From NCBI RefSeq assembly GCF_011745625.1, contig NW_027191454.1:930001-994000 (forward strand): a stretch of DNA of 64,000 bases, written 5' to 3'. This document shows positions 11,551-18,000 of the stretch, in pieces (position 1 is the stretch's first letter; each line of letters opens with the position of its first letter). The DNA comes from Cladosporium halotolerans. Taxonomy: Eukaryota. Under the pieces are notes generated by a model. That model was not told the DNA's origin. It made no database searches and was given only the letters and a program-made list of their open reading frames with translations. Both the position numbers and the translations under genes were made by a program.

Positions 11551-12325
11551 AGCGGGAGAGCGAGGGGAGGGGAGGTTCAGGGCTGGGGGGAGTGGGTGGC
11601 GTTCTGAGTTCGCGGAGGGGAAATTGGGGCTGTATGAGTAAACGGGAGGGCTCGGATGGGTTTCGTCCGTTGGATGGGTTGGTTTCCACCACGAAGGGCA
11701 CCCTTGGGCGGGACTGGGGTTGGCCGCAGAGCTGCGCGCCCAGTCGGTGTGTTTATTTTCGTTTGATAGAGGCTCCGCGGCCGGGTTCTGTGCGCACTCA
11801 CGAGCATGCACCCATGACTCTTCTCGGGAAAACGAATGTTGAATGCACATAATCTTCATACTCATCACTATCTGCACCTGCATCTCTTCTTATCAATAAC
11901 GCAAAAGCCAAAATGGATCCAAGAAAACTGAGTGAGGGGGTATCCGATATTGGGGTATATCTCATTCCGCAACGAGGCCGACCTTCCTTTTTTGGTTTGT
12001 TCTCCGCCCTTTGATACAGCCCGTCGATTCCCCGAGAGACTGTCCTCTGAAAAGCAAATTCATAAACACATACTCCGGCGCGCAAAATCGTAATCATGAG
12101 TTGGAGACTTTTCCTCTTTTTTTGGTCCTTTTCTCTTTTTTTCTTGGTGTGGCCTGTACTCCAGATCCGCATCCAGGTAGAACTCCAGTCGCCTCGTGAA
12201 GAAAACGCGATGCAGCCGTGGCGTGTCACAGCAGCCGTGTCGCAAAGCACCATATCCGCCTGCCCGTTCCTGTATCCCTCTTCCTCGTCTGATCCTTCGT
12301 AAATTTCGTAAAACAACCAGCGCCC

Positions 12326-14153
12326 TCAACCCCAAATACTCGCCCTCCGCTCCACATCCTCCTGCTCCACGCACCCTTCGAACCAAGGACTCCGGAGCGC
12401 ATCGCCGACCGTCCACCGAATATCCGCCTCGAGCTCCAGACACCCCTTGACGAGCTCGATGGCGGCCTCCGAGCCCGCCGCCGCCTGCCGCAGCGCGTCG
12501 CCGTCCCAGTCCGAGTGCATGATGAGCTCGACGGTCTTGCTGGGCATGGCGTGGCGGAAGGGCAGGTCGCCGGTGCACAGGGCGTAGACGACGACGCCGA
12601 AGGCCCAGACGTCGCCGGCCGTCTCGAACAGCTTGCGGTTGACCGTGAGCCCTTTGGGCGAGGCGTACTCGAGCGTGCCGATGACCGAGGAGGTGGTGTA
12701 GAGGCGCCCGGAGGAGCCGTTGGCCGAGGGCGAGCCGAGCGTGCCGTCATCCAGCTGCTCGCTGGTGTGCTCGTCCATGCTGCCGCCTTGCAGGAAGTCG
12801 GCGAGGCCGAAGTCGCAGAGGCGGAGGGTGCCGCCTTCGGTGTCGGCGTTGGGGGCCGAGAGGTCGACGAGGCAGTTTTCGAGCTTGACGTCGCGGTGGC
12901 AGACGCGGATGTCTTCGTGGAGGTAGCGCAGGGCGCAGGCGAGCTGGTAGGCGTAGCGTTTCGCTAGCTTGGGGTCGAGGCCTTTTGAGCCTCCGGTGTT
13001 GGCTGCTATTGTCCGTTGCTTGGCTACCATGTCGAATAGAGAGCCTCCTATGTTCAAGTCCATCACGCAGAATGTAGCGAATTCCGTATCGTATACGGCG
13101 TGCAAGCTGAGAATGTTTCGGTGTTTGAGATACCGCCACACAGACACTTCGTGCTCGAGTTCTTGCTGCGCTTTGTCGTTTGCAATCTCGTCATGGCCCT
13201 GAACTTGTTTGCGAACGATCTTGACAGCTCTGATGATGCTCTCTCCAGTCCGTGGATTAAACGAGTGAACTTCTTTGACGACACCGAAACCACCGCGGTT
13301 GACAGTCCTGCCAATGATGTACTCATTGTTCAGCCCAATGGCTTGACCTTCATCATCAGGTTTAGGCTCAGCGGGTGCGGGCTCAGAGGTGACTTCACTT
13401 CTATGCCATGAGGACAAAAACGCATGAGCAGGACTTGCAGACATCTGACTGGGTTCACCGGAGCGACGCGAAGACCGCCGTGAGCTGGAACCCAATCCTG
13501 ATATTCTGGACACACGAGAGGTACGCAACGACCGCGTGCTTGAGTTTCTGCTTAGTGGGTTGTTACTATCATAAGTGGGCGACATGAGAGGAGAAGTTAT
13601 TTGAGTTCCGTCGAGCGAGTGATTCACTTTCCGAGATTCGGGGATCGTCTGGGGCGAGACTGTAAGCCGGGCAAGACTATCAAGAGAAGTGGTCATGTTG
13701 GATTCGGATGACGATGGAGAAGATGGACCGGGAGAAGCGACATCTTCAGGGGTTGCGTTAGGCAGAGATGTCCTCGATTCGTATGTCGGGGAGGCTGCTA
13801 TGGGGACTGCCCGGCTGCTTGACATCGGGGTCTGGGATTGGGGGCCCTGCGTCGGGTTCACTGTTGCTCCGCTGTACTGGGTCGCCTGCGGTGTATGTCA
13901 GAGATATGACTCATGTTGGTGGATGACATCAGAGAAAATGCCTGAGTCAACTTACCTGTGAATGGATTGGTCTTGAAATGGGCCGGATCGTATCGCTCGA
14001 GTGTGTCTGCAGTTTCATCTGCGGTCGGCTCGACATCACGGGCGAGTCTGGGAGGCGACCGACCTCTCTTGCCACCCTTTCTGGCGTTGGGACCTGAGGG
14101 ATGGTCTGTGGAGAGGATGAGCGGAATGCGTTCTCCATCGTCGGTGACGGCAT
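12326..14153 (-). CDS. Ser/Thr protein kinase, Nnk1-like; exons 14153-13956 and 13885-12326
   Basis: Kinase motifs RGGFGVV, AVKIV, HRDVKLEN, LCDFG, GTLEYASP, DVWAFG. The 70-nt intron (CAG|GTAAGT...CTGAC...GCAG) joins the 13947-14267 frame (MPSPTMENAF...PIHSQ) in phase 0 to the kinase frame. Start could be 14153 or 14138. Nnk1 assignment is from recalled similarity only. Confidence 0.85.
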
Positions 14154-15033
14154 GGGTGCCGAACGAGATGCTTTTTCCGCGCCTGCGAAGGTTGGCCTGC
14201 AGGGCAGCGAGCTCGGCAGATCGCTGGTCGGCTCTGCCCTCGGAGAAGGCCCGCCAGGAGACACCACCGCCCTGTTGAGCTTTGGGTTTGTCGACTCGCT
14301 TTATGTAGGTTGGTGTTCGGCTGGTGTTGAACAAAGGGGCGAGGGCGTCGATGTCGGGGTCGTTTGTGTCGTCTTGGCTGTTGGACCGCGAGGACAGGGC
14401 TTCGTCGTCTTCGTCGTCACTGTCTTGCAAGTACTTTGTGCCGGCGAAAGGCGAGGCTACGGTATGTCGTGGCGGAGCGAGCTTGCTCTGGGCGTTTTCT
14501 TTTTCTGTCCGTGGGGAAGAAGATCTGCGTCCAGGGCTTTTGGCGTCGGAGTTGTTGCGTGGAGACGGGCTGGGTCGTCGGTCACGTCGCGCAGGCGGGG
14601 AAAGCGTGTCGTCGGCCTCGTCGTCGCTCTCGTCGAGGTAGGCGAGGATGCCGCCGGCTTGTGTTTTCGCGGCCAGGGAGCGGCGATGGGCAGCGGCGGT
14701 CTTCTCGGCAGAGGGTCGTCGGGCGGCGCCGTCGGAGACGTGCGAGGCGGCCAGCTGGTCGGGCGCAGGGCTGAGGCGGCGGTCGAACTTGTTCTTGGGC
14801 GGCGTGGTCAGAAATTCATCGTCGCGGTCGGCGAGGTTGGAGTTGGAGTTTGGCGACGCTGGCTTGGCGGCAGTAGCGGGCTTTGTGTTAGGCGGCGACT
14901 TGGCCGAGGGCTTGCGGCTGCGGCGGGCGTCGTCAATCTCATCTTCGAAGCCAGTGTCGAAGGGATTGCGACGCCGGCGGCCGGTGTCGACGCGCAAGGC
15001 CTTGAAGTGCTTCTGGATGTCGTATGCGGCCAT
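13758..15033 (-). CDS. Uncharacterised ~401-aa disordered protein overlapping the kinase 5' end in another frame; exons 15033-13956 and 13885-13758
   Basis: Long ORF MAAYDIQKHFKALRVDT... with acidic and Ser/Pro/Arg patches. After the shared intron it reads GDPVQRSNSEPD...LPDIRIEDISA* (TAA 13760-13758). Confidence 0.65.
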
Positions 15034-18000
15034 GCAAGCAAGCGGCACGTGAAGGCGAGGGATGCGAGGGCGGGCGGGTGTTAGCGTGAAGTGGGGCAGG
15101 GCAGGGCGCGCTGCGAGGCGAGAGGCGAGACAAAGCCCGGCGGCGTGGGGAGCCTCAGGTGGGAGCTGGCAGTGGGAGTGATGAGCGATGAGGGCACGAA
15201 GGCGGCGGCGGCGGGCGCGGCGACGGCGGAGTGAGTGACGGGGATGATATGATGGCGTGGGTTGGAGTTGGAATGCGCGAGCGGCCGGACTGAGGGAGCT
15301 CAAGGGCGTGACGGGGCCTGATGGACTGAAGGGAGCAGCGCAGGGCGTCGATCTCGCCGGCCAGCTTGATATCATGCCGAGCGTGGTTTGAGGCGCCAAG
15401 CAAACACCGCCCCCGAGCTAGACTGCTGCGCGCGCGCGCCGCCAGCATCATGTGCAAGCCGCCTGGACGAGAGGGTGGCACGGCGGACGAGGACGCCAGT
15501 GATGCCGCTCTGGCCCTCAGCGCCCGCAGCGCCCACAGCACCCACAGAGCAGCCTCCGCCGCCCGTGCAAGGCCCCTCGCGCGCCTCTCCCCGCAATCTG
15601 CGGGCGCTATGTTATTAGGTAGGTCCTCACGCCAGCCAACGGATCCAGCGCGCTCTTGGCGCTGCGCTACAGCTCCCTGCCTGGAGGAGGCATGTGTGGT
15701 ACCCTCCCTCACTACTGAGCTGCTCCATCTCACGCCCCACGCGGCAGCAGAACAAGCAACCAGGCAAGCAGCCGGCGTCCGCGGCCGCAAATCTCACCCT
15801 GCCATCCACATCCACATCGTGCACCCAGCCGCGGCTCCCTTCCCGCCATGACTCGGCAAGGCCGTCATGTCTGCAGCCGTACGGGTATCCCATCACGAGC
15901 ACCCACCCGCCACGGGCAGCCGCCTGTCCGGGCCCCACCGCCCGACTACGTGTCCGTGGATACGGCAGCGCTGAAACAGCACTCGAACCCCGTCGTGTAA
16001 ATGCCTCGTTTAGCGGCCCTCTGATCGCCGGTGGAGCTGTCAATATAATGCGCGCACGCGCTGACCCAGAAAGCAAAGTGTCGATGTCACGCTGCAGCTG
16101 TGTCAGCTCTTCACAGCATGCGGCCAAGCCGGAAGCGTTGCACGGCCAAGAGCATCATGCCATCCGCTGCGGAGGCGATCGTCGAGGCATTTCGACGCGG
16201 CTCGTAGAGTTTGATAGCAGTGTTTCGCTTGATGTCGCTTGTAAGCATCGGGCGAGGGTGAGATGTCGGCCGTGATGACATAATTCTGTCGACCGGATAC
16301 TCCATCCACTCATACTCAGCCTCAGTAGCACGGAAAGCAAAATGAACACAGACATCCGGCGTTTCCGGATCAACGTGCTCAGCTATAGGGCTGAATTGCT
16401 TGTCATAGCTTGTCGCGGGTCTGTGACGGTGAGAACGAGTGAGACAGCAGCCTTGTGAGACAGACGTCGTTTCCCGCCATAGTCGGCACGATCAGCACAG
16501 AGAAATCTGTCGAGACCGGGACAAAGGGCTCGCGGTGCGACGTGCGCTCAAGAATCCTCACCATCTCACACCGCCACATCGGCAATCTACGCTCGTGAAA
16601 AACAATTATTGGTTACCGAAGAACCAGATGACTGTCTCGCTACCAAGGGTTGCATCAAGAGGTCCCTATCCCAGGGCTCAACCCGACAGGCTGCTTATAC
16701 GAAAGAGGACGTATTCTTCTTTGGCTTTGTAGGGACATGCTTATCTCAGCATGTATCAACCAGGTTGTGTACCCACATGTAAGCAGTCCTCCTAGAATCT
16801 AATCTCACACACCAGAAGTCAAAGGGAGGACAATATCGAGTGGCCGGCCAGTCAACGATCAGACCTCATACTAATGAGGCGTCCTAGCTCAAGGTGCTTA
16901 CGCTCATCTCACGCACCTCATCCTTGACTTATGCCGCATCCTGCCTTCGCTTACCCGAAAGTTTGTATCGAATGTGCTGTCGTGGGAAGGACACAGTCCC
17001 GACATCACTAGGGAAATATAGCATGATACGCTCTCTCGCGGTCTTCGAGAGATTTCCAGAGCGGCTTTTCGACGGATGTGAGTTCTCCATTACCTCCAGA
17101 TTAGTTTCACAGGACTTGACCGTACGAACGGCCAAGAATGCCATGCATTTTTGTCCGTAAGCGGTGGTCGAAATCTCCTCAAAAACCAGCATGGATGCCT
17201 AGTGGCCGAAATAGCCACTGGTGATTTTACGTTTCGTTCGCGTTCGCCTCCAAACATGAGAAATCGCGTAGCGGCTTGAAGTGATTATTTACCAGTAATT
17301 ACAGCAACAAATGCTACGCACGTGATGGCATCTTCGACTCAACGTGGAGGCTAACTCGGATATACCAACACATCAGGGATGCAAGCAGACACAATGTTTT
17401 TGTTTGCATCTCAGTTTTCGAGGCTGATGGCATTGGTAGGCAAACCTACATGTAGACGTCTTCAGACGCTCGTTGCTTGCAAACGCGGGCGTCATAGATC
17501 AATGAACGGGAATTTGGTGCCGTTCATTGCTGAAGCTGGGGCTCCTTTCAGAGCTGTCTCGATGGCAGATGGGCAGATAGAAGTATATCAGCTCGGGCAG
17601 ATAGGTCGTCATACAAGATCGGTCCCTTGCCGGAGAATATAGACTAGTGCCAGTAAGCGTGGTCGCTAGCAACAACGCATAAAGGCGGTGATACGCCAGC
17701 CTCGACGTTATCTTCACAATTCGACGTTTCCGTGAGTGCGTACGGCATCAGACTGTAAATATTATAGAACAAGCTTTTCGTTGTGTCCCTTCTCTGCGCG
17801 ATCAATCGATTGCCCTCGAGACGTCGATCGCACGAGAAGCCCCCTGAGGCGCGTTTAGCGACTGACGTTGTTCGAGCAACTGCCACGGTGGAGCGCTCGG
17901 GAAGCTCCCGGCGCTCTCCAAAGCCCAAGCCAGCCCAAGCAAGAGAGCCGTCCATCATCTGACCTTTGCGCGTGCCCGTTGACTTCGCGCCCTCGCATGC

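Follow-up and report, generated by a model that had tools for sequence, protein, structure and literature searches.

This analysis concerns a locus on the minus strand of a 64,000-nt stretch of the Cladosporium halotolerans genome (contig NW_027191454.1, positions 930,001 to 994,000; here called the window), at which a long open reading frame (ORF1) and the coding region of a protein kinase follow each other in different frames. All coordinates are positions of the window and refer to the minus strand unless stated otherwise. ORF1 begins with the ATG at 15031..15033, which has a T at position -3; most of its orthologues start with MAAYDIQKHF. Its first exon (13956..15033) comprises 359 codons plus 1 nt and is free of internal Met codons. 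It is followed by a canonical GT..AG intron of 70 nt in phase 1 (13886..13955; GTAAGT...CTGAC...CAG) and by a tail of 41 codons (13761..13885) reading G-DPVQRSNS...SLPDIRIEDISA. The frame closes with the TAA at 13760-13758, and the spliced ORF1 has 401 codons.

Relative to ORF1, the kinase lies in the +1 frame. This frame is joined in phase 0 at 13885 and is open upstream to 14300, with two ATGs, 14153 and 14138 (at offsets of 880 and 895 to the ORF1 ATG), in the open stretch within exon 1 (13956..14300). When the ORF1 stop and the C behind it are taken as one step, exon 2 is open down to the kinase stop TGA at 12326..12328, and the part of the kinase frame beyond this point (12329..13759) has 477 codons. 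A CAMK-like Pkinase domain occupies 12380..13315, which corresponds to residues 191-502 of the kinase ORF P0002 (PF00069, E 6.3e-40, score 137.7 bits versus a curated cut-off of 31.7). The catalytic motifs AVKIVRK, HRDVKLEN and DFGLAD are readable in it, and its closest solved relative is DAPK2 (E 7e-23). In Pfam, neither ORF1 nor the peptide of the overlapping +1 frame matched any family. A first-pass annotation, made from the sequence of the window, had described this layout, and its positions for the ORF1 start, the intron, the ORF1 stop, the opening of the +1 frame, the phase-0 join and the two ATGs all proved correct.

Contigs from four sequencing runs of four different studies (X1, X5, X7 and X15) cover the locus; that X1 and X5 stem from RNA is a guess of the search tool. 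In these two, which come from two runs of two studies, the intron is spliced out. Record 4 of X1 (1639 nt) skips precisely the 70-nt intron and is otherwise uninterrupted. Record 9 of X5 (3007 nt) is the longest spliced, messenger RNA (mRNA)-like contig spanning both ORFs (12244..15295); it is placed on 12244-13884 plus 13955-15295 and nothing but the 70 nt is skipped. X7 and X15 retain the intron. A separate 1723-nt contig carries a 401-aa ORF (P0124) identical to the spliced ORF1. Intron-less, cDNA-like contigs, namely X1, X5, this 1723-nt contig and two from orthologous loci (L005 and L016, the intron-less twins of L006 and L004, respectively), retain both the ORF1 stop and the +1 relation. 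Thus, the frame break is present in mRNA-like contigs, a single contig spanning both ORFs not being by itself proof of a single transcript. The first-pass annotation had proposed one mRNA for two proteins, with about 326 nt coding in both frames. Of this, the mRNA-like contig with both ORFs in frames 0 and +1 stands; the dual coding does not, as set out below. A second intron 3' of the ORF1 stop was considered as a means of restoring the frame and rejected: the sole GT..AG candidate found by eye, 65 nt long, has the wrong phase, and the region downstream of the stop is coding in the relatives. As a separate observation, X7 shows a 6-nt in-frame insertion at 14835 (GTTGGA on the plus strand) within an Asn-Ser repeat of ORF1; this short coding repeat is polymorphic in length.

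A scan of metagenome contigs gave 80 loci, of which L001-L024 were analyzed in detail and L025-L047 screened with ORF1 queries and the motif pattern described below, yielding no match; the analysis covers these 47 of the 80. Since L008 begins within the kinase, it is uninformative. The orthologous loci that cover the junction number 22 (L001-L007, L009-L022 and L024), with an ORF1 identity of 45-79%. Each of the 22 has a G.PV.R element after the homologous intron and, approximately 30 codons further on, the motif [LIV]-P-[DA]-I-R-I-[DE]-[DN] in the ORF1 frame. The intron measures 60-76 nt in 13 loci and is absent from the cDNA-like contigs. In the window the motif reads S-L-P-D-I-R-I-E-D (13770..13796, codons -12 to -4 before the stop), and we regard it as a candidate nascent-peptide signal. 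It is conserved with synonymous variation in the frame of ORF1, in the 22 loci as well as in ten named gene models. In all 22 loci the ORF1 stop follows this PDIRI-type motif by 3-7 codons, and the kinase is in the +1 frame. TAA, TAG and TGA all occur at this place; therefore it is the stop as such that is kept. The spacing between the stop and a downstream P-Q-T-I-P takes ten different values in 20 sequences, every one of them 1 mod 3, hence changes in spacer length preserve the frame. Among 14 models fetched for named species, ORF1 ends directly after the motif in ten, including those of Zymoseptoria tritici, Cercospora zeina, Ramularia collo-cygni, Septoria linicola and Rachicladosporium.

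Gene models were compared for 24 of at least 120 listed kinase relatives. Orthologues of the kinase occur in Dothideomycetes such as Rachicladosporium, Zasmidium, Cercospora, Dothistroma, Hortaea, Friedmanniomyces and others. Some of the models, 820-896 aa long, fuse an N-terminus resembling ORF1 to the kinase, at places that differ from model to model; others, of about 600 aa, contain the kinase behind an unrelated N-terminal part. In some species two adjacent genes are annotated, for instance B0A51_17604 and B0A51_17603 in Rachicladosporium. The first-pass annotation had expected gene predictors to fuse the two ORFs or to drop one; the models either fuse them by means of ad hoc introns or count them as two genes. 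Several of them contain the string A-S-L-T-S-A-S-T, which is the +1-frame reading of the nucleotides for S-L-P-D-I-R-I-D. A homology of 'SRIYDDDL' in the Elasticomyces model to 'DIRIDDL' was entertained and rejected, as L019 shows the same nucleotides read in two frames.

To see which frame is under selection, we calculated the ratio of nonsynonymous to synonymous diversity (pN/pS) from a codon alignment of ten close relatives. Over exon 1 the value in the frame of ORF1 is 0.18-0.28. In the exon 1 part of the overlap it is 0.18 for the ORF1 frame versus 1.49 for the +1 frame, and from the intron to the stop 0.34 versus 1.05. Immediately behind the stop the relation is reversed. Over the 19 codons up to the first downstream Met, pN/pS is 0.28 in the kinase frame versus 2.0 and 2.8 in the others, and for the remaining kinase it is 0.14-0.17 versus 1.9-2.5. 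The diversity at the individual codon positions displays the same switch of frame at the ORF1 stop. Purifying selection changes frame exactly at this stop codon, a finding that, like the conserved position of the stop after the motif, the first-pass annotation had missed. Two conclusions follow. As the +1 frame shows no purifying selection in the overlap (1.05-1.49), the overlap is not dual-coding. Furthermore, as the constraint on the kinase frame sets in with the codon after the stop, ahead of any AUG, the kinase frame is probably translated from there. The would-be start of the kinase, the downstream Met, is a Leu in L018 and missing in L013. The peptide of the +1 frame (P0003) finds matches in close relatives only, at 14 of the 22 loci, compared with 20 of 22 for ORF1, and the two ATGs 14153 and 14138 derive from conserved T-D-D-G codons and are absent in five of eight distant lineages. 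Two local features of synonymous variation may be mentioned here. At 14005-14031 a block reading E-P-T-A-D-E-T-A-D hardly varies synonymously among the close relatives, with a third-position diversity of 0.036 over 10 codons, and pS is 0.39-0.42 across the last approximately 110 codons of ORF1 compared with 0.55-0.68 elsewhere.

In one distant orthologue both parts lie in one frame. L023, located on a 452-kb genomic contig and 46% identical in the kinase domain, reads GMSISF..ADDG..NPFTGEPVRR and the kinase continuously in one ORF of 615 aa, which lacks the intron, the stop and the PDIRI motif. The first-pass annotation had named continuous-frame orthologues as an argument against its proposal; at the DNA level this distant locus is the only one found, and all 22 closer loci keep the break. 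Known as proteins only, the Hortaea models P0060 and P0054, the latter with the intron read through in frame, and the 818-aa P0094 look in-frame as well. P0060, P0054 and P0183 of Hortaea werneckii together with P0094 resemble lineages that returned to one frame, with PDIRI no longer read; P0094 reads the PDIRI nucleotides in the other frame as A-S-L-T-S-E-S-T. Judging from these one-frame relatives, the gene product appears to function as a single polypeptide. A profile built from 14 ORF1 proteins, searched against 1.84 billion representative sequences, returned 30 clusters, all of the same family, and no ORF1 relative outside the clade; the only longer relatives of ORF1 were the 14 fused models of the same clade. 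As all of these belong to the clade, it is L023 alone that extends the breadth of the family beyond it.

Our best explanation, to which we give about an even chance, is programmed +1 ribosomal frameshifting at the ORF1 stop. The locus would then be one gene, coding for a CAMK-like Ser/Thr kinase whose N-terminal region is long and disordered. Translation would initiate at ATG 15033 and proceed in ORF1 through the junction of the 70-nt intron. The majority of ribosomes would stop at TAA 13760 and release an N-terminal protein of 401 aa. A minority would slip by +1 with the stop codon in the A site, so that GCC-TAA-C (last sense codon, stop and next base; 13757..13763) is decoded as GCC followed by AAC (13759-13757), and would continue in the kinase frame to give a full-length kinase of 878 aa. 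At the moment of the shift, the peptide S-L-P-D-I-R-I-[DE]-[DN] would be located in the exit tunnel. This peptide and a poor termination context, a C past the stop, would slow termination and thereby favour the shift. Indeed, of 23 sequences, 18 have a C directly 3' of the stop, four a T and one an A, and none has a G, which indicates such a poor context. The shift itself, its efficiency and the role of the peptide are what we infer; it is the conserved position of the stop, the frame switch of selection, the one-frame relatives and the frame break in cDNA-like contigs that favour frameshifting.

Several observations weigh against this explanation. Nine different last sense codons (GCC, TCC, AAG, GCA, CAG, CAA, CTC, CGA and ACT) occur in the 23 sequences, hence there is no common shift-prone codon. 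A conserved RNA structure 3' of the stop was not found, with 0 consensus pairs in 13 sequences, and the fold of the stop region in the window itself reaches a z of only -0.9. A 3' stimulatory structure is not present in all known cases of +1 frameshifting. X1 and X5 count as RNA by the guess of the tool only, and contigs conceal rare isoforms. Finally, the pyrimidine at -3, the Met-free ORF1 and the sparse stops of the +1 frame, all described below, are not expected from frameshifting and fit internal initiation better. With regard to the variable last codon, a tentative variant, which we consider somewhat improbable, is a +1 shift driven by the nascent peptide and independent of the P-site codon, in which the motif would stall termination at whichever stop comes next and so allow the ribosome to move on to the +1 codon.

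The main competing explanation takes the locus as overlapping ORFs giving two proteins. ORF1 would be translated from its weak AUG, and the kinase would be started separately at an AUG of the +1 frame within the last 5-450 nt of ORF1, either by leaky scanning together with re-initiation after short dead-end ORFs or from a shorter transcript starting inside ORF1. We regard this as unlikely, but it has a number of points in its favour. In each of the 17 orthologues whose 5' end is complete, a pyrimidine stands at -3 of the ORF1 AUG (14 T, 3 C); fungal start sites do not usually have one, and the frameshift model offers no explanation for it. In the window the context is CTTGCTTGC-ATG-GCC (upstream bases at 15034-15042), and YTGY-ATG-GC is conserved in most orthologues. 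Internal Met codons are lacking from ORF1 in 13 of the 17, and AUGs in the +2 frame are almost absent; consequently each AUG past the last +1-frame stop leads into the kinase. The weak context and the missing Met codons noted in the first-pass annotation were thus seen again across the orthologues. Weak ORF1 context and few AUGs are marks of the leaky-scanning bicistrons described in green algae (PMC11291117). Furthermore, the +1 frame is open for 194-944 nt ahead of the ORF1 stop in 21 of 21 sequences. In the last 450 nt of 11 thinned sequences there are 6 stops in the +1 frame, when 16.8 are expected from a local shuffle and 24.0 from synonymous resampling, compared with 17 observed versus 26.1 or 19.2 expected in an upstream control segment; the last 150 nt have none versus 4.0-8.6 expected. 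This depletion is uneven, other 150-nt bins scatter as widely, and the sequences are related. An initial figure of 2 versus 28.0 stops in the last 450 nt was discarded, as codons had been shuffled over the whole ORF1 and L012 and L020 omitted; L012 has four +1-frame stops in this part, and the corrected tests are weaker. In the window the other stop-free +1-frame runs in ORF1 measure 90, 116, 51 and 117 aa, and the stretch open from 14300 is not unusually long.

Against a separate start of the kinase speaks the missing purifying selection on the +1 frame in the overlap. A start codon of the kinase ORF is not conserved, the AUGs of the +1 frame being located anywhere from -5 to -455 nt from the stop depending on the lineage, with the nearest one in L020 at -269. 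Between the ORF1 AUG and the open stretch there are 1-5 AUGs opening dead-end ORFs, and 3-9 off-frame AUGs occur in ORF1 across the orthologues. The first-pass annotation had correctly counted only two ATGs between 15033 and 14153 (14942 and 14819, offsets 91 and 214) and had considered them fewer than expected. However, ORF1 of the window has 7 off-frame ATGs compared with 5.5 in codon-order shuffles (P(sim<=obs) 0.87). The count is at the level of the shuffles, thus the low number results from composition and the missing Met codons. Internal initiation furthermore leaves unexplained why the stop always lies 3-7 codons past the conserved motif and why relatives with one polypeptide exist both inside and outside the clade. 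A minor splice isoform is a further way to connect the two parts: an acceptor AG at 13861..13862, 25 nt 3' of the canonical one, would bring exon 1 into frame with the kinase, the dominant isoform giving the 401-aa protein only. Of 13 loci that have the intron, 8 show a YAG at +25 in the right phase. In the published models of Zasmidium (P0017) and Elasticomyces (P0041), exon 1 seems to be connected to the kinase frame near this place, and such an acceptor would account for the +1 frame being stop-free between the junction and the ORF1 stop. But this YAG is missing in L006, L007, L009, L010 and L013, and in the window four other AGs lie between the branch point and the +25 site. The resulting protein would lack G.PV.R, which is retained in the one-frame relative L023. 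Every spliced contig (X1, X5, L005 and L016) uses the canonical junction, so that a dominant splice fusing ORF1 in frame to the kinase, named in the first-pass annotation as evidence against its proposal, is not what these contigs contain. We consider the minor isoform improbable. An artefact of assembly or sequencing, or a pseudogene disabled by a strain-specific mutation, is practically excluded as the source of the frame break; the first-pass annotation had raised an assembly error and a strain-specific indel. Frame problems of a single base are frequent artefacts at exon junctions, and L012 has one in-frame TAG in its kinase part where L014 has GAG; yet the break is identical in the four runs from four studies, none of which has a 1-nt indel in the coding region, it is common to all 22 orthologous loci, and both parts are under purifying selection (pN/pS 0.14-0.34).

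The proposed frameshift may be compared with systems already described. In the mRNA of ornithine decarboxylase antizyme, likewise, two ORFs in frames 0 and +1 overlap in part and the shift lies beside the stop of the first, and this arrangement, like that of the kinase locus, is conserved across long evolutionary distances (PMC1874602, PMC4505036). In Agaricomycetes, +1 frameshifting on the antizyme mRNA is stimulated by a peptide whose codons lie at 15 to 5 ahead of the shift site (PMC4505036); the motif at -12 to -4 of the kinase locus recalls this conserved 5' stimulator. The kinase locus differs from antizyme in coding for an unrelated protein and in having an ORF1 of 400 codons instead of a short one. 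It has no conserved 3' structure and no conserved last sense codon, and no ligand or feedback loop is known for it; moreover, the shift is here proposed from sequence. PaYIP3 of Podospora anserina and other Pezizomycotina is also a cellular gene of filamentous ascomycetes with a conserved frameshift near the end of its ORF1; its long form needs the frameshift, and short and long products are both made (PMC3777964, PMC5009743). There, the shift is mostly -1, with a slippery heptamer and a pseudoknot, and another protein family is concerned, whereas the kinase locus would shift by +1 at a stop codon lacking any slippery run. Shifts by +1 while a stop codon occupies the A site are described for Euplotes, where protein kinases are among the affected genes (PMC4759687, PMC5009743). 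In Euplotes, however, the phenomenon is genome-wide and tied to an altered termination; the kinase locus is one fungal gene family with standard termination. The bicistronic nuclear mRNAs of green algae, finally, share with our locus the weak start of ORF1 and the few in-frame start codons before ORF2 (PMC11291117). Their ORFs are non-overlapping and ORF1 is short, as opposed to an ORF1 of 1.2 kb with 3-9 off-frame AUGs and no conserved start of ORF2 at the kinase locus. In the literature covered, subscription journals lying outside it, neither frameshifting nor bicistrony was found described for this kinase family, and the only cases of cellular frameshifting in filamentous ascomycetes it yielded are antizyme (+1) and PaYIP3.

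Cases of phylogenetically conserved frameshifting are rare among nuclear cellular genes, and according to one abstract the known conserved examples are very few (PMC11451614). A conserved +1 site in a kinase gene that is marked by a peptide and not by a slippery codon or an RNA structure would, if true, be a new and easily testable case of recoding and would inform how nascent peptides and termination context drive it. A peptide-driven shift would determine how much free N-terminal regulatory protein is made relative to full-length kinase, and such a control would span the Capnodiales-like Dothideomycetes, including the crop pathogens Zymoseptoria and Cercospora. If so, the ratio of the products might respond to a small molecule, in analogy to polyamine-sensing peptides. 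Under a peptide-driven shift the weak context of the ORF1 AUG would serve against collisions of ribosomes at the stall; a weak start may equally well limit such collisions as promote leaky scanning. If internal initiation were true instead, the locus would be a conserved overlapping bicistron in fungi, which is also unusual. For annotation, the consequence is immediate: public genomes misfile this gene in at least three ways. It is entered as a pair of neighbouring genes, as a kinase that is truncated and bears a spurious N-terminus, or as a fusion held together by invented introns.

Some minor observations remain to be reported. The gene is G+C-rich, and several off-frame or antisense stretches of 100-330 aa are open, therefore openness alone says little here; on the plus strand, 14098-15084 hold a stop-free frame of 328 aa antisense to ORF1. 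The in-frame TAG of L012 (4222-4224) is located 42 codons past the frame break and may be a sequencing error, a polymorphism or the sign of a dead copy in that sample, its close relative L014 having GAG. An ORF1 homologue labelled Quercus suber (P0207) is probably fungal DNA in a plant assembly. P0010, a 766-aa ORF on a 6138-nt contig, has a Cys/His-rich, zinc-finger-like N-terminal part continuous with the kinase frame. Its kinase is a relative with 75% identity, and the zinc-finger-like part stands in place of ORF1, which may reflect a chimeric contig or a different upstream neighbour.

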